This document shows, in pieces, positions 9,835 through 40,145 of a stretch of DNA of 64,000 nt. The DNA comes from an uncultured bacterium (GTDB taxonomy: Bacteria; Patescibacteriota; Saccharimonadia; Saccharimonadales; 2-12-FULL-41-12). Under the pieces are notes generated by a model that was not told where the DNA came from, did no database searches, and saw only the letters and a list, made by a program, of their open reading frames with translations. The position numbers and the translations under genes were made by a program. The stretch lies in the NCBI GenBank assembly GCA_963834265.1, contig CAWIAU010000002.1:75929-139928 (forward strand), in the 5' to 3' direction. Positions within the stretch are counted from its first letter, which is position 1, and the number at the start of each line of letters is the position of its first letter.

Positions 9835-11019
9835 ATGTGTATTATGAATACACCTCTTGCAGAGAAAATGCGTCCGCAAACTCTGAGCGATGTTGTGGGC
9901 CAGGAACATTTACTGGCATCAGGGCAAATTATCAGAGAAATTATCAGGAGCAAAAGACCTGCAAGTCTGATTCTGTGGGGACCTCCCGGTAGTGGCAAAA
10001 CAACCCTGGGCAGGATTATTGCTAATGAAACGGACGCAAAATTTATTGAGATTAGTGCTGTCATGGCCGGCAAAGCCGACATTACCCGCATAATTGAAGA
10101 TGCGCAGGTCTATCAGCGTCTGGGAGAGAAAACTGTTCTTTTTGTTGACGAAATTCATCGATTTTCCAAATCCCAGCAAGATACCTTTCTGCCGTACGTT
10201 GAGGACGGAACTATTATATTGATCGGGGCTACGACCGAGAATCCGGGCTTTGAAGTAATAACCCCGTTACTTAGCCGTTCACGCGTATTGGTACTGGAGC
10301 CATTGGATAAAGCAAACATAGAAAAAATTATCAGGAAAGCCGCTAAATCTGAAAAGCTGAGCGCAAAACGGCTGCCCTCCAAAAGTATAGCTTTACTAGC
10401 TGAGCTTTCCGGCGGCGATGCCCGCGTAGCCCTGGGAAATCTGGAATTGGCACTGCAATTAAGCAACGGTCCGGTTACACCAGCTATCGTAGAAACAGCT
10501 GCTCAAAAGCGGGTGCCCGGATACGACAAGAACGGCGAAATGCACTATAACATCGTCAGCGCCTTCATCAAATCAATGCGCGGTAGCGATGCCAATGCGG
10601 CCCTTTACTACATGGCCCGTATGCTTGCGAGCGGAGAAGATCCCAAATTTATTGCCCGCCGGATGGTAATTTTTGCCAGTGAAGATATCGGTATTGCTTC
10701 ATCACCGGCACTTAATCTTGCTGTTTCAACATTTGAAGCAGTAGAACAAATCGGAATGCCTGAATGTCAATATAATCTCTTTCACTGTGCTTTAGTACTG
10801 GCCAAATGTCAGAAATCACGCGTAGTAGCAGAGGCTATGAGCGCGGCATTGTTAGCAGCAAAACAGTATCCTGACCTATCCGTACCTTTGCACCTGAGAA
10901 ACGCCCCTACAAAACTTATGAAAGATTTAGGTTATGGCAAAGGCACTAAATGGGAAGCAGAATTCAAACACCCAAAAGGCTTCCTGCCGGAAGACATTAA
11001 AGATCTGGATCTATTCTGA
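9835..11019 (+). CDS. rarA: Replication-associated recombination protein A (RarA/MgsA AAA+ ATPase)
   Basis: Shows LAEKMRPQTLSDVVGQEHL, Walker A GPPGSGKTT, Walker B VLFVDEIHRF, and the MgsA C-terminal domain (HYNIVSAFIKSMRGSD). An alternative start is at 9844. Confidence 0.9.
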   Translation: MCIMNTPLAEKMRPQTLSDVVGQEHLLASGQIIREIIRSKRPASLILWGPPGSGKTTLGRIIANETDAKFIEISAVMAGKADITRIIEDAQVYQRLGEKTVLFVDEIHRFSKSQQDTFLPYVEDGTIILIGATTENPGFEVITPLLSRSRVLVLEPLDKANIEKIIRKAAKSEKLSAKRLPSKSIALLAELSGGDARVALGNLELALQLSNGPVTPAIVETAAQKRVPGYDKNGEMHYNIVSAFIKSMRGSDANAALYYMARMLASGEDPKFIARRMVIFASEDIGIASSPALNLAVSTFEAVEQIGMPECQYNLFHCALVLAKCQKSRVVAEAMSAALLAAKQYPDLSVPLHLRNAPTKLMKDLGYGKGTKWEAEFKHPKGFLPEDIKDLDLF

Positions 11020-11122: not shown

Positions 11123-13318
11123 ATGGATAAACAGAAATTTATTATCGTATCAAATCGATTGCCGATTAGCGTTGCCAAAGTTGACGGCAAACTTGTGTAT
11201 ACCTCCAGCCCGGGCGGATTAGCTACAGCTATGTCGTCACTAGGCAAAGATCCTTCAAAACGACTTTGGATCGGTTGGCCGGGTATTGCTTCTGATGATC
11301 TTACAACAGCAGAGAGACGTCAGATAACTAAAAGACTGCTGGCAGAGAACTACTATCCGGTATTTTTGACTGGTCAGCAGATTGCCGGTTTTTATGATGG
11401 TTACAGCAACGAGACAATATGGCCGTTGTTTCATTATTTTCAGGCTCACACCCAATACAGCGATACTTACTGGCAGGCCTACAAAGAAATTAATAATCTG
11501 TTCAAAATAGCAGTTACAAAAAACGCCCATAGCCGTGCAACTGTATGGGTACATGATTACCACCTGATGTTACTCCCTCAAATGCTCAGAACTATGCTTC
11601 CTAAAAGCTCTATTGGTTTTTTCCTGCATATTCCCTTCCCTTCTTTTGAACTTTTCCGCTTGTTGCCCAATCGCAAAGAAATTATTGACGGTTTGCTCGG
11701 AGCCAACTTAATTGGTTTTCATACTTATGATTATGTACGGCATTTTATAAACAGCGTTGTGCGTACTACCGGCTTTGAAAGTGAGCGGGGCGTTATTATG
11801 CTTGACGAGCGAACAGTCGTTGTGGACGCCTTTCCGATAGGCATTGACTATAAGAAGTTCACGGAAACCCTTGAAAGCCCGGAGACAAAAAAGGAAATTA
11901 AAATACTGCAGGACCACTATAAGGATACACAGATTATACTGTCAGTCGATAGATTGGATTACTCAAAAGGGATCATTAAGCGGCTCGAGGCATTCGAGCA
12001 ATTTCTGGAAAAGTATACACAGTTTCACAAAAAAGTCGTCCTTATTGTGATCGCTGTTCCTTCCAGAACTGATGTAGAAGCATATAAAAAGCTACGACGT
12101 ACTATCGAAGAGTCAGTGAGCCGGATCAATGGAATGTATGGCACTGTTGACTGGACACCCATTTCCTACCAGTTCAAGAACCTGGACTTTGTGCCATTGG
12201 TGGCACTATATGCACGGGCTGACTTAGCTATGGTAACTCCTCTCCGTGATGGTATGAATCTGGTTGCTAAAGAATATATCGCTTCCAAGCAACACTCTAC
12301 AGGCGTGTTAATTCTCAGCGAGCTTACAGGCGCCGTTGATGAGCTGCCGGAAGCGCTTCGCATTAATCCGAATGATACGCTATCGATTGTCCGCGCTATT
12401 AAGCATGCACTCACTATGCCAAAGATTACCCAGCTGGAGAAACTTGCATCAATGCAGAACCGTTTATCAAGTTATACCGTACAAAAATGGGCAGCCGATT
12501 TTATACACCAGCTGGAGTTATCGAATCGTACACAGATTGAACGCTATGACAAATTATTAACAGTAACAGAACAAAAAGAAATAGTTCAGGCATACAAAAA
12601 AGCAAAGCATCGTACCTTACTGCTGGATTACGATGGTACGCTATCCGCTTTCGTATCAAGTCCTATGCATACTAAAGCAGCACCATCAAAAACTCTGCTT
12701 CAAGTTCTGAAAGCATTAATCGATCAACCAAACACCACACTTTACATTATCAGCGGGCGGACAAGAGAGGCGCTGGATGAATGGTTCGGTCATCTGCCAA
12801 TCTCGTTGGTTGCAGAACATGGATTCTGGGTCAAACAAGGCGATACCTGGGCACAGGAAGATGTATCATTCAGGAAGCATAAGCAGGATGTATTACGCAT
12901 AATGCAAAGTTATGCGGAAAGAACACCCGGTGCCGTAATTGAAGAAAAGAATTTTTCGGTTGTATGGCATTACCGCAACACTCCGCCGGAACTTGCGTAT
13001 GCACGTAATGCAAGTTTACGGCACGATCTGCGCAATCTGTTGTCTGATAGTGATATCCGTGTTCTTGGTGGCAGCAAGATTATTGAAGTCAAGCCTCACG
13101 GCACAAACAAAGGTACGGTAGTGAGTGAGTTATTATTCGAAAATCAGTCCGATTTTGTTTTATCAGTTGGCGATGATGATACAGATGAAGATATGTTCGA
13201 AGTCCTGCCCGGATCGGCGTATTCGATAAAAGTAGGCCTCGGCAACACACGGGCCCGCTACCAGGTAGCATCAGTCAGCAAAGTCATAAATCTCCTCAAA
13301 ACCCTGTCTCAATCTTAA
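11123..13318 (+). CDS. Bifunctional trehalose-6-phosphate synthase / trehalose-6-phosphate phosphatase (GT20 + HAD fusion)
   Basis: 731 aa. The N-terminal ~470 aa are OtsA-like (VSNRLP, WVHDYHL, LRDGMNLVAKEY). The C-terminal part is HAD/OtsB-like (LLLDYDGTL ... GDDDTDEDMF). Confidence 0.9.
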   Translation: MDKQKFIIVSNRLPISVAKVDGKLVYTSSPGGLATAMSSLGKDPSKRLWIGWPGIASDDLTTAERRQITKRLLAENYYPVFLTGQQIAGFYDGYSNETIWPLFHYFQAHTQYSDTYWQAYKEINNLFKIAVTKNAHSRATVWVHDYHLMLLPQMLRTMLPKSSIGFFLHIPFPSFELFRLLPNRKEIIDGLLGANLIGFHTYDYVRHFINSVVRTTGFESERGVIMLDERTVVVDAFPIGIDYKKFTETLESPETKKEIKILQDHYKDTQIILSVDRLDYSKGIIKRLEAFEQFLEKYTQFHKKVVLIVIAVPSRTDVEAYKKLRRTIEESVSRINGMYGTVDWTPISYQFKNLDFVPLVALYARADLAMVTPLRDGMNLVAKEYIASKQHSTGVLILSELTGAVDELPEALRINPNDTLSIVRAIKHALTMPKITQLEKLASMQNRLSSYTVQKWAADFIHQLELSNRTQIERYDKLLTVTEQKEIVQAYKKAKHRTLLLDYDGTLSAFVSSPMHTKAAPSKTLLQVLKALIDQPNTTLYIISGRTREALDEWFGHLPISLVAEHGFWVKQGDTWAQEDVSFRKHKQDVLRIMQSYAERTPGAVIEEKNFSVVWHYRNTPPELAYARNASLRHDLRNLLSDSDIRVLGGSKIIEVKPHGTNKGTVVSELLFENQSDFVLSVGDDDTDEDMFEVLPGSAYSIKVGLGNTRARYQVASVSKVINLLKTLSQS

Positions 13319-13390
13319 GGAATTCTTTTGCAAAGAATCAAAACGTATCTTTTTTTGATAAAAAGACATGTTCTTCCGACGAAGAACCAA

Positions 13391-13640
13391 GTCGATACTT
13401 TTGTCTCCAGCAACAAAAGTATCCAAAAACGCCGCAGGCTTGAAAAGCTCTTTATGGTCTCATTGCCAAAGCCAACAATGCCTTGGACGACTCCTTCCGG
13501 TCGGTCCGAACTTTTATTAAGCTCTAAGGAATAAGTTCGGACTGGGTCCAAGGACTAGAATTGTTGTTTTGGCACTCGCCCATCAGGAGCTTCTCAGGCC
13601 TGGAGGGATCCAAGGAAAAATTACTAAAGATAGTTTTGGT
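13391..13640 (+). repeat. Left arm of a long imperfect inverted repeat; candidate structured RNA element (copy 1, sense to otsAB)
   Basis: Reverse-complementary to 14561-14803 in two conserved blocks that flank a copy-specific hairpin. Several internal helices are preserved by compensatory changes (see findings). Confidence 0.75.
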
Positions 13641-13747
13641 TTATAAAACGGCGTTTACTCAGATATGACTCCGCTCAGTACGATTGGTCTCAATCGGTTT
13701 CGTTTAACGCCGGGTATCAAACTATTCTAATTTTTAGAAAAATACTA

Positions 13748-13776
13748 TTGATTAAATAGCAATTGTGTGTTATTTT
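13748..13776 (+). promoter_or_regulatory. Candidate sigma70-type promoter (TTGATT - 17 nt - TGtTATTTT) giving a leaderless or near-leaderless transcript
   Basis: The -35-like TTGATT is at 13748-13753 and the extended -10-like TGTTATTTT ends at 13776. The ATG at 13782 is only 5 nt downstream, and no Shine-Dalgarno sequence is present. Confidence 0.4.
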
Positions 13777-13781
13777 AAAAA

Positions 13782-14455
13782 ATGACCCCCCCCATAACAA
13801 TAGATCCTGCCTTAGCCGCGGTAATTGAGGCTGCTAGGGAACCTTATGTAAAATTTGCGGAAGTAGCAGAAAAAGATGGTGTTAATCCGTTACCTATTCA
13901 AGAATTAGCTCAACAGGTAGGATATACAGCGGGATTGGCTTTTGTCCGGAATCTTGCTGTACAGTTGAGTCGATAAGAATAGCTGAAGAAATAGCAGACC
14001 GAAGTACTGCTCCGCAAAGTTATGCATTTATACCTTACACTCCTTACGAGATTACCGCTAGAACACTAACCGCAAAGCAGATACAGGAAAGCATACTTGA
14101 TGCCGGCAACGGTAAAGAATTATTAGATGTAGCAGCAGGCGTTATTGCTACGACTGATACTTTTACTAATGCCTACCTAACAACCGAAGCCAAAATTTCT
14201 AGACCATCGAGTATAGCTGCTATAAAGTTCATGCGTTCTAATGGTTTGATAGAAGATGTTGATCATCCAGAGAAAAAGAAAAATAAAAAATTTCGGCGAA
14301 CACCAATTTTTGATGAGTATGTTGGGTGTCTTCCAGCTTGGCAAAGAGAAATAAAACTTAGAACCCTTGAACATAAACTAGGCATGAACAGAGAAGGTGT
14401 GCTGGACTATTTAATTACTCTGGGCGGATTAATAGTTTCACCAGAACAAGAATAA
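13782..14455 (+). CDS. Hypothetical protein (~224 aa if joined) split over two frames; starts with a C8 homopolymer
   Basis: The 13782-13976 ORF (64 aa) overlaps a second frame that is open from 13886 to 14455, and the two read as one protein if a 1-nt shift occurs near 13886-13976. A C8 tract sits at 13786-13793, directly after the ATG. I recognise no family. Confidence 0.45.
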
Positions 14456-14560
14456 AGCTTTAATACTCGGATCCTGACAAGTATTTCCAAGAATGGATCA
14501 GCGCACAATCACGCTGGTTTATGTCATTGATTACTAAGCAGTTGTTTTTTTATAATAAAT

Positions 14561-14803
14561 CAAAATTATCTTTAGTAATTTTTCCTTGGATCCCTTCAGG
14601 CCTGAAAAGTTCCTGAGGGGCGAGTGTCGAAAGCACAATTATTAGCGAGGGGGTGTTTGAAGCTGTTTCACTCATTAGAAATTAATAGAAGAAACAGCAA
14701 GTTACTCGAGCATTGTGCTTTTCGACAATGAGACCATAACGAGCTTTTAAAGCCCGCGGCTCTTTTGGATACTTTTGCAGCTGCAGGGAAAAGTATCTCG
14801 AGT
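14561..14803 (-). repeat. Right arm of the long imperfect inverted repeat; candidate structured RNA element (copy 2, sense to metK)
   Basis: Its reverse complement aligns with 13391-13640. It lies directly 3' of the metK stop (14881) on the minus strand. Confidence 0.75.
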
Positions 14804-14880
14804 GGACTGCGAAGCAGGCTAATTGAAACTGGATTTATCTAATCACTAAACCCTAAAACCTAACCACTTTTCAAAACTTT

Positions 14881-15999
14881 TTAAACTTTTACGGTTTGCT
14901 CCCATGGGAGGTCTTCTTTGCCGAAGTGGCCGTAGGCAGCCGTTTGAGAGTAAATTGGGCGGCGTAGGTCCAGCTTTTCTATAATTCCCCGGACAGATGT
15001 ATCGATTAACTTGTCTTTAAATGTGTATAGTTCATCGTCACCCACAGCAGCAGTACCAAATGTTTCGATTGTCTGCATCAGTGGCAAAGGCTGTCCGATA
15101 ACGTATGCCAGGCCGACCTCACACTTTGTCGCCATACCAGCAGCTACAATATTTTTTGCGATATAGCGGGCTGCATAAGCTCCGGAGCGATCCACCTTAG
15201 ATGGATCTTTACCACTGAATGCGCCGCCGCCTACACGGGCATAGCCGCCGTAAGTATCGACGACAATCTTGCGTCCCGTTAATCCTGCATCCGATTCAGG
15301 TCCCGGAATATGCCACAAGCCAGTACCATTTATCGTAATATTTTCGTCACGGGGAATGTTAAAGCCGTATTTTTCCAGAACCGGTTTAAAGACCGAGTTG
15401 ATCACATCGGAGTGAACCTGTTCCGGTGATGTAGTTTCGTCGTGAGCAACAGCAGCAACTATTTTTTCAATCGAAACCGGTTTGTCTCCCTCATATCGTA
15501 CGGTGACCTGAGCTTTTCCGTCGGGACGGAGCCACTTTAGTTCACCGTTTATACGTGCCTCATCAATACGGCGCGTCAATGCGTGTGCCAGACAAATCGG
15601 TAGCGGCATCAGCTCGGGTGTCTCGTTGCAGGCATAACCAAACATCATACCCTGATCGCCGGCACCATCCTGATCAACACCTTGAGCAATTTCCGGAGAT
15701 TGCTGATGTACGTCATTTCCAAATACTGACTCCTGACTAAATCCCCAGGCCGGATTGGTATAGCCGAGTTCTTTGACTTTATCGCGGGCAATTTTTTCAA
15801 AATTGAGTTTAGCGGTCGTTCTGATCTCTCCGAATAAGCATATCTGATTAGCGCCGGCTACAGTTTCGATACCGGTTCGGCTATACGGATCCTGTTTTAG
15901 TGCTGCATCTAAAATTGCGTCGCTAATCGCGTCACAAATTTTGTCCGGATGGCCTGCGCATACTGACTCACTCGTAAACAGTTTAATGATGGCTGGCAT
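14881..15999 (-). CDS. metK: S-adenosylmethionine synthase
   Basis: Shows FTSESVCAGHPDKICD, GAGDQGMMFGYA and GGGAFSGKDPSKVDRS motifs. The ATG at 15999 follows a GGGGGAAGG Shine-Dalgarno sequence. The ORF-track start at 16017 is an upstream GTG. Confidence 0.95.
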   Translation of the reverse strand: MPAIIKLFTSESVCAGHPDKICDAISDAILDAALKQDPYSRTGIETVAGANQICLFGEIRTTAKLNFEKIARDKVKELGYTNPAWGFSQESVFGNDVHQQSPEIAQGVDQDGAGDQGMMFGYACNETPELMPLPICLAHALTRRIDEARINGELKWLRPDGKAQVTVRYEGDKPVSIEKIVAAVAHDETTSPEQVHSDVINSVFKPVLEKYGFNIPRDENITINGTGLWHIPGPESDAGLTGRKIVVDTYGGYARVGGGAFSGKDPSKVDRSGAYAARYIAKNIVAAGMATKCEVGLAYVIGQPLPLMQTIETFGTAAVGDDELYTFKDKLIDTSVRGIIEKLDLRRPIYSQTAAYGHFGKEDLPWEQTVKV

Positions 16000-16040
16000 A
16001 AAAAATCCTTCCCCCACACATACAGAGAAAGGATATCAAA

Positions 16041-25755: not shown

Positions 25756-25829
25756 TGGGGAGTGGCCAAGTGGTAAGGCACTGGGTTCTGGTCCCAGGAT
25801 CGGGGGTTCGAGTCCCTCCTCCCCAGCCA
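25756..25829 (+). tRNA. tRNA-Gln (anticodon CTG), CCA encoded
   Basis: Manual cloverleaf: acceptor TGGGGAG/CTCCCCA, D-arm GCC-AAGTGGTAA-GGC, anticodon stem CTGGG/CCCAG with loop TTCTGGT, and T-arm GGGGG-TTCGAGT-CCCTC. The discriminator is G, followed by CCA. Confidence 0.9.
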
Positions 25830-25837
25830 GATGCGAC

Positions 25838-25874
25838 AGCAGAATTTCAGACCTAAGTCCCTAATTCTGCTTTT
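25838..25874 (+). terminator. Stem-loop after tRNA-Gln (agcagaatt ... aattctgct + TTT)
   Basis: A 9-bp inverted repeat at 25838-25846 / 25863-25871 is followed by ttt. Confidence 0.5.
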
Positions 25875-25900
25875 GCATCAGCAAACAGAGAAATACTAAC

Positions 25901-25928
25901 AAAAAGAGTCGTTAATCCGACTCTTTTT
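25901..25928. terminator. Bidirectional rho-independent terminator (AAAAAGAGTCG-ttaatc-CGACTCTTTTT)
   Basis: A perfect 11-bp stem carries an A-run on the 5' side and a T-run on the 3' side. It lies between the tRNA and the 3' end of the recombinase remnant. Confidence 0.7.
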
Positions 25929-25935
25929 GTTTAGA

Positions 25936-27226
25936 TGCTTAGTCTGCGGTAGATCTGCTTATTCTTAACGAATAGTGGTAAGTTTAGACCTCGTATGAAA
26001 CCCGTCTTGTTCATGAATATTGTGCCTTGTCTAAGAACATAGCTCGCATAGTTTCTGAAATGTGCTCTTTCGGAGTGCTGTCAATTCCATGATCCTTTGA
26101 TAAGCTGGCTTGTAACGCGTTTGTATTGTTCGATCTTGTTGAATAATTGCTCGCTCGGCTCAATATCGTCGAATTCTCCCGCATCCGTCATTGCAAGATT
26201 TGTTCGGTGATCATGGTTGCTGTTATTGAGCGCTCCGGACAGTCAGGGTCTTTTGTCGATTTCGTGCACCGATAGTATACATGCCTGTTTCTGCCTCCGT
26301 CCGCTCGCTTTTTGAAATGCTCTTCGACCGTCAGCGTGAGCCACACGCCCCACAGTAGAATAGATGCTTGAACGGGAATTGTCTTTGATCCCCATGCTGG
26401 CTTTTCCGGTACTAGCGAGTCCATGCGTGACTCGAACAATGTCGAACAGTTCTTTTGTGATTATCGGCGGATGCTTACCCACATAGAGCGGACCTCCTGC
26501 GGGATATTCGAAATAGCCGTAGTAGAATGGGTTAGTCAAGGTTCTGTAGATCTGACTTAGCGACAATACAGCGCCAGACTTAGTTCTGAAGTCGATACTG
26601 TCCAAGCCAGTCTTTTATGGTACGCCGCTTTGGTGCAGTCAGACCTGAGCGTTCAAACATTTCCTTAACAATCGGTGCTCGATCGGTGTCCAGCACTATG
26701 TCTCGGACGCCACCGAAAGCTCGGTTTACATAACCAATTGGCGCTGCTCCCGGTCGCCAGCCCATCTCACATTTGGCACGTATGCCACGTTTGACGTTAA
26801 TACCACGATTATCGTTCTCGAGCTTGGCTTGAGAGCACAGGATCATCAGAAGGAACTTCTCGTTCGGCGTGTTGCTGAAGCTTTGTCCAAATGTACGGAT
26901 GCGCTGTAGTCGGTTTAAGTCCATTAAATCTACAAGAGACCCAAGATCTCCTGCATTTCTGCTTAGTCGATCCGGTGCCCAAGTCAGGATTGCGTTGTAT
27001 TCGCCGTTCCTCAAGTCGTGCAGCAAGTTCGTTGAATACCGGCCTATGACCAGACTCCTTTGCCGAGAAACTCTCTTGTTTGATGACAACTACATTCAGC
27101 TCTTCGCGTGTTGCCATAGCTTGCATTTCTTTGATTTGTGAATCGATCGACATTGCCTGTGCGTTCGTCAGACTCGCTCGATTTGCGGGCATAAAGACAG
27201 TATTTAAGTTGAGCAGTATTTTCCAT
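25936..27226 (-). pseudogene. Large serine recombinase (resolvase/invertase N-domain + recombinase + zinc-ribbon), multiply frameshifted
   Basis: Fragments lie in at least 5 frame segments: YCLYARKSSESDER (catalytic Ser region), SIDSQIKEM...RPVFNEL, ILTWAPDRLSRNAGD, GYVNRAFGG..., YYGYFEYP..., YYRCTKSTKDPDCP (zinc ribbon), and a C-terminal tail down to ~25936. Confidence 0.8.
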
Positions 27227-38466: not shown

Positions 38467-40145
38467 CTAGCTCTGTTTAGGTGGTTCGTCGTCTTTGGAA
38501 TCCAAAGGATTTGTAAGTTTATTCTTATCGACACCCAATATTCCACTCAGCGGATCTTTCGGTATATCTTCACCAGACCCCCAACCCCCTATCTTATGAA
38601 GCGCTTGTTCGGAAGCCCGTATATTGTCTGCGGCTTGTGTATATGTTGAATGTGTAGGAAAACCTGAATTCATAGTATCGGTATTTAAATCTATACCGCC
38701 TCCTTTTATTTGCGCCTGGCCGCCGGGACCGGTGGTGATATTAATGTCGCCATTTCTTATACTTGTAGTTCCGTCAGGTCCGGTAGTGATGCTCATAGAG
38801 CCTTTAACTATGTCGAGACTACCATTGCTGATTTTAACGTGATCATTATTGGTGCTTGCTTCATTTCCGCTTCCCGTTGCAGTAACTGTACCTTCAGGAA
38901 GATTCCCTGCTCCGGTGCCATAATCAGCGGGCGGGTCATTATTCGTTTCGGAAATATCAGTGTTTGCGTAATTGTTGCCGGAAGTCTGAATATTACTCTG
39001 GTTAAAGGTTGAGCTTTCGCCCACGCTGCTGACGGACTCTCCCGGTGCGCCCTGGGTGGCTGTGCCTTCAGAGCCTGATATATTGCCGTTTGACGATTCA
39101 AAAGATGGTTTAGTAGAAGCTACATTACCTGGTGACGATTCCTCAGATACAGGAAGAGCTACCGGGGTGCTATCGGTAGTAGGAATAGATACCGGAACTG
39201 TGCTGCCAGGATGATTATTACCGGAAACAAGTACGCCGTTATGATATGTCTGGGTATCGTTATGAGTTACCGTAGAACTTTCGCCCACGCTGCTGACGGA
39301 CTCTCCCGGTGCTCCGACTGCTGACGGACTGGAAACGCTGCTATCTCCGCTTTGATTACTCACAATCTGACCGGTCGATGCGTCGGCGCCATCTGCACCG
39401 GTATTAATGACCGGTGCACCGGGGGATGATTGATTATTAATGTTTGTAGCCTGAGAATAGTTAGTGTTAGATTGCGAACCTGTACCTGGAGTGCTGGTGG
39501 ACTGGCCGGACCCCCCGGAGTTGCAGTTCCCTGACTACTACTTGTGCTCCCGGGTATCGTAATCGTGCCCGGTTGTGCAAAAGAACTCTGCGGCATGCCG
39601 GTAATCGGGTTAATAGCAGGATGCTGCGTAGCTGTAACATTATTGTTATCCGAAATCTGCGTTTGCGATTGATTAGAAGTCTGGCTTGTACCTGTGCTGC
39701 TAACGGATTGTCCGGGTGCTCCCTGTACGGCTGTGCCCTGGGTATTATTCACATTTCCGGTCATACTATCACTGTTGCTGCTTTCTACAAACGGACCTTT
39801 GGCAGAAGCCACATTGGATGCACTTTCATCAAAAGCGGGTTTTGTAGAGGGGGTATTAACGGGAGGAGAACCGGTTACCGGTGATCCGTTATTAGAAATA
39901 TAGGTATCATTTTGAGTAACTGTAGAGCTTGCGCCCGTGCTGCTATCAGACTGGCCATCGGCCCCCTGTACGGCTGCACCGACTGCTGCACCTGTTGACG
40001 AATCATCAGTATTGGAAGTTTGCGCACCGCTGCCACCAAAAACTATACTACTGCCCTTGTCAGTATTTGTTAATCCGGGAGTTACTGCCGGATCATTATT
40101 ATCGAACACTATGCTATGTTCATCTGAAGAAAGACCTTTAGCCAT
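38467..40145 (-). pseudogene. Repetitive Ser/Thr/Gly/Asn-rich protein (~559 aa if joined) split by a 1-nt frameshift in a C6/G6 tract
   Basis: ORFs 39360-40145 and 38467-39363 become one frame if the plus-strand C6 run at 39511-39516 were C7. There are four ~100-aa repeats (GAPG[EQ]SVSS.G.S.T ... TKP[AS]F[DE]ES). The C-terminal beta-rich part contains TTGPDG/TTGPGG. No signal peptide is present. Confidence 0.6.

Follow-up and report, generated by a model that had tools for sequence, protein, structure and literature searches.

What are the two long, hairpin-rich inverted repeats that bracket a single gene between the housekeeping genes otsAB and metK of an uncultured saccharibacterium? The question arises from a 64,000-nucleotide stretch of contig CAWIAU010000002.1 (hereafter, the window), for which a sequence-only reading had described twin structured elements enclosing an anonymous 0.9-kb cassette. 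It had proposed that they form a new class of noncoding RNA, the 3΄ untranslated regions (3΄-UTRs) of the two flanking genes, the ends of a mobile cassette or the arms of an invertible segment. The evidence is strong that the two elements, here called arm L and arm R, are genuine, that no known family explains them and that their structure is under selection. We tentatively prefer the explanation that they are structured RNAs carried by an acquired cassette, which we regard as a good possibility that falls short of being probable. The two arms are as follows.

13391–13645, helices read on the plus strand: arm L, folding z = –7.2
14554–14803, read on the minus strand: arm R, the inverted copy, recognized by the arm L covariance model at 114.6 bits (E = 5e-28)

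A repeat search resolved the arms into two inverted-repeat blocks, 13394–13481/14710–14797 (88 nt, 82% complementary) and 13559–13644/14555–14640 (86 nt, 88%), and a MAFFT alignment likewise placed two conserved blocks around a divergent center, as the sequence-only reading had claimed. When one arm was compared with the window by blastn, its partner was matched at E = 3.6e-35 and nothing else was found; exact-pattern searches returned two copies only (0 expected by chance), and this is the only long inverted repeat within the 64 kb. A perfect run of 29 nt lies at the inner ends of both arms. With the covariance model from arm L, neither the remainder of the window nor 24 other loci yielded a further copy, and none was present in 195 kb of related contigs. 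A 16.8-bit match at 25866–25937 was rejected as the intrinsic-terminator hairpin after the gene for tRNA-Gln (25756–25829), which is unrelated to the arms.

An assembly fold-back artifact was dropped as an explanation because such an artifact would give identical arms, whereas these have diverged, and because an independent Logan assembly agrees up to 13396. We also dropped the possibility of small conserved open reading frames (ORFs) within the arms, since most of the differences would be non-synonymous and the arm of a second element described below contains a stop codon. The independent Logan contig (ERR12037361), which carries the same OtsAB, breaks at 13396, 78 nt past the stop codon and exactly at the start of arm L, although the two arms share no 31-mer; the break could reflect population heterogeneity at the arm boundary.

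Both arms adopt a common architecture, in which a terminal hairpin (P1) is followed by a rod of ~170 nt composed of helix H2, an internal loop, helix H3 and an apical domain. The parts are listed below, arm L on the plus strand and arm R on the minus strand.

P1, terminal hairpin: arm L 13394–13404/13413–23; arm R 14789–97/14768–76
H2, 15-bp closing helix: arm L 13436–50/13587–601; arm R 14741–55/14598–612
Conserved internal loop: arm L 13451–65 and 13573–86; arm R 14726–40 and 14613–26
H3, 13 bp with one bulged base: arm L 13466–79/13560–72; arm R 14712–25/14627–39
H4: arm L 13481–88/13546–53
H5, apical stem: arm L 13504–13/13533–42; arm R 14691–98/14662–69
Apical loop, A/U-rich: arm L 13514–32

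The folding energy of arm L was –96.6 kcal/mol and that of arm R was –71.2 kcal/mol (z = –4.1), with z-scores computed against shuffled sequences for both arms, and all of the helices quoted in the sequence-only reading were found where it had placed them. The strongest evidence for selection on structure comes from H3, in which 9 of the 26 paired positions differ between the arms and all 13 pairs are nevertheless kept, through four double compensatory changes and one change from G·U to A-U, with no pair disrupted. In a Monte Carlo simulation, nine random substitutions kept all 13 pairs with P = 8.9e-5, which supports the earlier suggestion of covariation. The P1 stem (GATACTTTT...AAAAGTATC) is kept in sequence in both arms and its spacer is variable. 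The long-range helix that had been reported as retained, H2, is indeed present in both arms, but it shows no covariation, and two mismatches render it weaker in arm R. Between H2 and H3 lies an asymmetric internal loop of ~15 and 14 nt, both strands of which are nearly invariant (TTATGGTCTCATTG and CACTCGCCCNTCAGGA); its conservation argues against a mere symmetrization of palindromes.

The apical stems are unrelated in sequence (GTCCGAACTT/AAGTTCGGAC in arm L and GCTGTTTC/GAAACAGC in arm R). The middle segments had been described as unrelated, and they do indeed show no significant global similarity in either orientation, so that a flip/flop relation between them was dropped; however, their apical loops are alike (CTTTTATTAAGCTCTAAGGAAT and CTTCTATTAATTTCTAATGAGT, ~17/22 positions by eye). 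If both arms lay in one strand, a duplex between them would be thermodynamically preferred (–288 versus –168 kcal/mol); the compensatory changes nevertheless preserve pairing within each arm and lower pairing between the arms. Because it is the intra-arm pairing that is preserved, each arm seems to work alone. Selection acts here on more than primary sequence: it maintains the fold within each arm as well as the internal-loop sequence.

The arms are part of a larger insertion. The flanking genes encode a fused trehalose-6-phosphate synthase/phosphatase (otsAB, ORF 11123–13318, plus strand) and S-adenosylmethionine synthetase (metK, ORF 14881–16017, minus strand), both identified by Pfam, and the region between them contains the following features in addition to the arms and the central gene.

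13319–14880 (1562 nt): lineage-specific insertion between the otsAB stop codon (13316–13318) and the metK stop codon (14881–14883), orthologous site empty in relatives
13319–13390 (72 nt): left spacer, outside the inverted repeat, with small A/T-rich hairpins
13370–13387, minus strand: terminator-like hairpin, GTTCTTCGTCGGAAGAAC then ATGTCTTTTT, just past the outer end of arm L
14804–14880 (77 nt): right spacer, outside the inverted repeat, with a small hairpin CTGC-GAA-GCAG

We retrieved OtsAB homologs of 74–81% identity together with their contigs, and found that the gene order MgsA-OtsAB-MetK-PAP2 is common to the window and three related lineages of Saccharibacteria. In one of these lineages (L082), otsAB ends at 10680 and metK, on the opposite strand, at 10686, with the stop codons 5 nt apart (10678–10688); in the other two (L081, 12193–12196; L086/L087, L086 2848–2855), the two genes overlap at their stop codons. 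Because the three lineages share the gene order and have abutting or overlapping stop codons (0–5 nt), the whole of 13319–14880 is an insertion, and the 1562-nt block was acquired and is specific to the source lineage. The description of the region as a cassette is accordingly strengthened. The two spacers belong to the inserted stretch as well; no similarity was detected between them in either orientation. Whereas the arms had been said to lie directly 3΄ of otsAB and metK, they are downstream of these convergent genes with spacers of 72 and 77 nt intervening. A covariance-model search of 18 related loci found no arm-like sequence, and in a scan of a genome collection with OtsAB, the best match was 59% identical, without an arm or synteny with metK. 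Exact look-ups of the MetK protein and of the first ORF of the central gene (ORF1) returned no contig. In the related Saccharibacteria, the otsAB and metK stop codons leave no room for any terminator between them.

The center of the block, which had been left anonymous, contains one gene, broken here by a frameshift.

13782–14455, plus strand: single gene for a winged-helix protein of the MarR fold, interrupted by a –1 frameshift

The first part, ORF1 (13782–13976), encodes 64 amino acids. The second frame is open from ~13883 to 14455, is homologous to related proteins from ~13964 and has no start codon before 14231. Homologs of 221–257 amino acids align across both frames: ORF1 corresponds to their N-terminal part and the second frame to their C-terminal part. 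Because these homologs span both ORFs, the copy in the window carries a –1 frameshift, located in a linker of low conservation. The frameshift region (13950–13980) has no homopolymer or slippery run nearby, and the break could mark a true pseudogene, a two-part protein or an assembly error.

The family is tiny. An exhaustive HMMER search yielded eight matches among 1.84 billion representatives, including the window's own 74-amino acid ORF and one repetitive spurious match, and we count about seven members, with proteins of 221–257 amino acids plus one of 132 amino acids; a word-indexed search of protein sequences, for which the two halves of the cassette protein were fused, recovered no homolog. 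The AlphaFold2 model of the protein had a predicted local distance difference test (pLDDT) score of 72, and in a Foldseek comparison with the PDB, the top 35 matches were all MarR-family regulators (E down to 7e-5, target-normalized TM-score ~0.5). A fold search of BFVD gave generic winged-helix matches only. Pfam MarR_2 matched one relative only (7.5e-5), and the window protein had no match above threshold. Judging from the model, the cassette protein is a MarR-like predicted DNA-binding regulator, not a recombinase. Pfam, PHROG, PADLOC and NCBIfam revealed no transposase, recombinase, HUH nuclease or defense protein in the cassette, and no HxH motif was present.

The closest homolog (P0122, 37% identity to the cassette protein) led to a second element. 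It is encoded on three near-identical contigs of ~1 kb (L091–L093), which come from three sequencing runs and count as one further element. The sequence-only reading had treated the lack of any further homolog as telling against it, an outcome narrowly escaped through this single additional case. An unmistakable arm lies downstream of the gene on L091, at the contig end, and a weaker arm-like stretch at the upstream end (26/34 aligned positions) is a probable arm fragment. Positions 912–962 of L091 match 13590–13539 of arm L at E = 1.4e-9 and match arm R at E = 1e-4. Apart from the arm core (AATTGTnnTTTnGnCACTCGCnCnTCAGGA), L091 and the insertion in the window show no significant similarity as DNA, and their genes cannot be aligned at that level; within AATTGTTGTTTTGRCACTCGCYCWTCAGGAGC, the L091 arm and arm L have 29/32 positions in common. 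Between the two elements, the arm core is more constrained than the protein gene. The apical stem of the L091 arm is of a third type (GCCCAGCCC/GGACTGGAC) around a similar loop (TTTTATTAATTTTTCAAGG), and three different apical stems are thus found around a similar loop. The L091 arm is 75% identical to arm L and 70% identical to arm R, and it lies downstream of its gene, whereas its closer match, arm L, lies upstream. This relation points, on thin evidence, to the existence of two ancient types of arm and to an earlier flip of the center.

We examined five contexts of the gene, and in the two that are closest to each other the arms go together with it. As for the other family members, P0124 lies directly upstream of a 16S rRNA gene (L096, region 1080–1288), with a TTGACC-17-TATACT promoter between the two and a contig end that reads AGAGTTTGATCCTGGCTCAG; P0125 (L095, 880–919) abuts the 3΄ end of a tRNA gene; and no arm or neighboring feature was seen on L094. 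The MarR-fold family may tend to adjoin stable-RNA genes, in a sample that is tiny and biased by contig breakage.

We compared the arms with known families and sequence collections. With the gathering thresholds of Rfam 15, no match was obtained in the arms from the whole window; at E ≤ 10, positions 12800–15400 and each arm alone gave only a 14.5-bit chance match to SpR08, and the 6S models had no match at E ≤ 10 on the isolated arms. The earlier statement that the arms fit no known noncoding RNA family therefore held. The resemblance of a GAGCC... hairpin in arm R to domain V of group II introns was dropped, since arm L has not retained this hairpin and Rfam gave no match. The whole insertion had no blastn match in phage and plasmid collections, and scans of viral contigs with three patterns gave 0 matches. 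A metagenome scan with the 19-mer GGATCCAAGGAAAAATTAC, taken from the 29-nt run, returned only three chance matches (L088 2349, L089 5538 and L090 3332), in TetR-type genes from soil metagenomes where it encodes the helix-turn-helix stretch GSKEKLL; that run is not conserved in the second element. In the literature searched on Saccharibacteria and Patescibacteria, we found nothing comparable.

We further analyzed which strand might be transcribed, using the following consensus matches and hairpins.

13748–13776, plus strand: promoter-like site TTGATT-17-TATTTT, ending 5 nt before the ATG of the cassette gene
13800–13772, minus strand: promoter-like site TTGTTA-17-TAAAAT, pointing towards arm L and overlapping the divergent plus-strand site
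14527–14556, plus strand: promoter-like site TTGATT-18-TATAAT, with 10/12 consensus matches, reading outward into arm R
13681–13696, plus strand: terminator-like hairpin, which fits the inward direction

The site at 13748–13776 suggests a leaderless mRNA for the cassette gene, and the –35 region of the site at 14527–14556 resembles that of the gene's own promoter. Positions 13747–13778 and 14526–14552 share ATTGATTA..AGCA..TTGT..TTTTA in direct orientation (shuffle p ~0.09, not significant), a motif that could be a common operator. On L091, the left arm has at its inner end a hairpin with TTTTCTC behind it, which also fits the inward direction. The arms had been described as lying in the sense orientation of otsAB and metK, a description that carries no information, as the opposite strands of both arms fold about equally well. 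Consensus-helix energies are better for the inward strand by only 2–4 kcal/mol; when G·U and A·C combinations were compared, H2 and H3 of the window arms favored the inward strand and H5 of the L091 arm favored the outward strand. In sum, promoter- and terminator-like signals and the G·U pairs of the second element weakly favor outward transcription, and helix energies weakly favor inward transcription.

These results can be accommodated by the following explanation, which we favor. The 1.56-kb block is an acquired accessory cassette centered on one MarR-fold winged-helix gene, frameshifted here, and the gene is bounded by two old, diverged paralogous elements of ~250 nt in inverted orientation. 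The arms, which lie to either side of the regulator gene, would function in their folded form as RNA; they would be small RNA (sRNA)-like genes or else form the structured termini of transcripts from the cassette. The winged-helix protein might govern them through the AT-rich promoter-like regions at 13748–13800 and 14527–14556, and the conserved internal loop and the apical loop would be putative partner-binding sites. Several observations weigh against this explanation. The promoter-like sites are consensus matches only and are not above chance (4 versus 3.7 in shuffled sequence), suggestive though their placement is, and terminator-like hairpins exist for both orientations. The balance of G·U and A·C and the near-equal energies of the two strands are the pattern expected of a DNA-level element, and inverted copies on both sides of an inserted gene are the arrangement classically seen in mobile elements, not in RNA genes. 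Moreover, no Rfam family matches the arms, the covariation comes from few sequences (three full or partial arms and one fragment) and three other family members (L094–L096) have no arms.

The arms might instead be hairpin-forming terminal repeats of a non-autonomous mobile cassette, acting as single-stranded or cruciform DNA on which an enzyme works in trans, with the MarR-like gene as cargo. Such a cassette would account for the clean presence/absence polymorphism at the otsAB-metK junction, the inverted geometry, the lack of strand asymmetry in G·U and A·C, and the decay of the cargo gene by frameshift while the arms remain intact; the conserved stem and variable spacer of P1 resemble a palindromic protein-binding site. 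In addition, two of the three runs with P0122 also hold an OtsAB relative (P0004, 74% identical), and the element does not follow the otsAB gene of this relative, which suggests a different locus for the second element, the link to the host being sample co-occurrence only. However, there is no convincing target-site duplication (the scanned offsets yielded just a palindromic TCGA and an offset CGAAG, each expected by chance), and the 72- and 77-nt spacers outside the repeat were inserted too. The arms differ by 12–18% and have an unalignable center, and one arm type resembles the arm of the second element more closely than it resembles its partner in the pair. Neither another copy in the window and the 195 kb of related contigs, nor a match in phage, plasmid or viral collections, nor a transposase or HUH motif in the cassette was found. 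We consider this, the main alternative, possible but rather unlikely, and favor structured RNA over single-strand DNA hairpin ends.

A recombinational role, in which the 0.9-kb center flips between the arms and switches which flanking gene receives outward transcription, would fit inverted repeats around a promoter-bearing segment and the 29-nt perfect run at their inner ends, and the greater resemblance of the upstream arm L to the downstream L091 arm hints at a past inversion. Yet the cassette encodes no invertase or recombinase, the arms are not homogenized, the 29-nt run is unremarkable at 85–88% identity (estimated p ~0.2), the L091–L093 contigs all show one orientation and the nested covarying hairpins would be left unexplained; we judge this role quite improbable. 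Somewhat less improbable, though still doubtful, is that the block is a decaying inverted duplication without present function, its hairpins being quasi-palindromes kept symmetric by template-switch mutation. The extreme rarity of the element, the frameshifted gene and the perfect Watson-Crick pairing of most stems on both strands agree with decay, but the arm core is conserved between elements whose proteins have fallen to 37% identity, the asymmetric internal loop and the bulged base were retained rather than symmetrized, and apical stems were wholly replaced while still being placed around a similar loop. Two further ideas seem very improbable. If the arms were 3΄-UTR, terminator or stabilizer elements of otsAB and metK, each would lie downstream of a convergent gene, as is the case, and read-through transcripts would contain it; this role, which the sequence-only reading had considered, is contradicted by the empty sites of the three related lineages, whose stop codons are 0–5 nt apart or overlapping, by the lack of arms in the 18 related loci and by the homologous L091 arm, which directly follows the MarR-like gene. 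Similarly, a divergent 6S-like RNA that sequesters RNA polymerase as a bubbled rod would share the ~170-nt rod, closing helix, ~15/14-nt internal loop and terminal stem domain, but neither a 6S nor another Rfam model matched the isolated arms even at E ≤ 10, the bubble is conserved in sequence and not only in shape, and the arms are two inverted copies on an acquired cassette that is absent from relatives at the otsAB-metK site.

Whichever molecule folds, a broader formulation is conceivable, though we hold it to be unlikely: the arms could be a new class of structured element, RNA or single-stranded DNA hairpin, that travels with the winged-helix gene as a minimal self-contained cassette of candidate phyla radiation (CPR) bacteria or Saccharibacteria. 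The protein would recognize the internal loop or the P1 palindrome, and the whole would be a previously unrecognized hairpin-ended mobile or regulatory unit without a conventional transposase. The genomes of Saccharibacteria are very small and leave hardly any DNA free between genes. Because the genomes are compact, otsAB and metK are separated by 0–5 nt or overlap in relatives, and the arm core is better conserved than the protein gene, the 1.56-kb insertion is probably not junk. As RNAs, the arms would constitute a new family of structured RNA linked to a regulator, and in the literature searched we found no such RNA described for the phylum; as DNA hairpins, they would indicate a type of cassette in CPR bacteria that is transposase-less or trans-mobilized. 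Their importance is limited by rarity, with two elements known, one of which has a broken gene. Elsewhere in the window (38984–39965), we observed four direct copies of a 68-nt unit, 62–79% identical and spaced 243–407 nt apart, inside the adjacent minus-strand ORFs 38467–39363 and 39360–40145; these repeats probably represent a repeated protein domain.

Finally, we compared the block with known systems. It resembles a mobile insertion cassette or a pair of miniature inverted-repeat transposable elements (MITEs) in that a non-transposase gene lies between terminal inverted repeats (82–88% identity), at a neutral spot between convergent genes, with presence/absence polymorphism among relatives. 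In contrast to the 10–50-bp transposase-binding ends of such elements, the arms are ~250 nt long, contain nested covarying hairpins and an asymmetric loop, and are mutually diverged, and neither a target duplication nor other copies were seen. In REPIN/RAYT units, hairpin-forming doublets of repetitive extragenic palindromic (REP) sequences flank a RAYT gene in inverted orientation. The present element likewise has inverted hairpin repeats around one gene, compensatory change and an extragenic position between convergent genes, but its gene encodes a MarR-fold protein and not an HUH/Y1 (IS200/IS605-like) transposase, its rods are about twice as long and a genome-wide population of copies was not detected in the window and the 195 kb of related contigs. 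The bridge RNA of IS110 and the omega RNA of IS200/IS605 elements differ in that no DEDD recombinase, TnpB or IscB gene lies in or beside the cassette, and the arms have no Rfam match.

The integron attC site is similar in preserving structure over sequence and in its single bulged base, unpaired center and variable tip. The core sites R΄΄/R΄ (GTTRRRY/RYYYAAC) are, however, absent from both strands of both arms; the rod of ~170 nt and the arm of ~250 nt compare with a 57–141-nt palindrome, the rod being two to three times larger than an attC site, and the unpaired region is ~15 nt. The arms, moreover, are two copies in inverted orientation, unlike the direct arrays of integrons, and enclose a single gene, of the MarR fold (intI was not searched for in the wider genome). 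With 6S RNA, the arms share a rod-like fold, a closing helix, a ~15/14-nt central internal loop and a terminal stem, and differ in the absence of a covariance-model match, the conserved loop sequence and the two inverted copies on an acquired cassette.

Genes for sRNAs are known to adjoin regulator genes, as in oxyS/oxyR and gcvB/gcvA, and OmrA/OmrB are a paralogous sRNA pair. Unlike the sRNAs of such pairs, the arms are inverted on both sides of the gene and are much longer and more structured than is typical. As in sRNA-regulator pairs, structured noncoding elements stand beside the gene of a small DNA-binding regulator, with promoter-like sites between gene and arm; and as in paralogs of the OmrA/OmrB type, conserved blocks enclose a divergent center.

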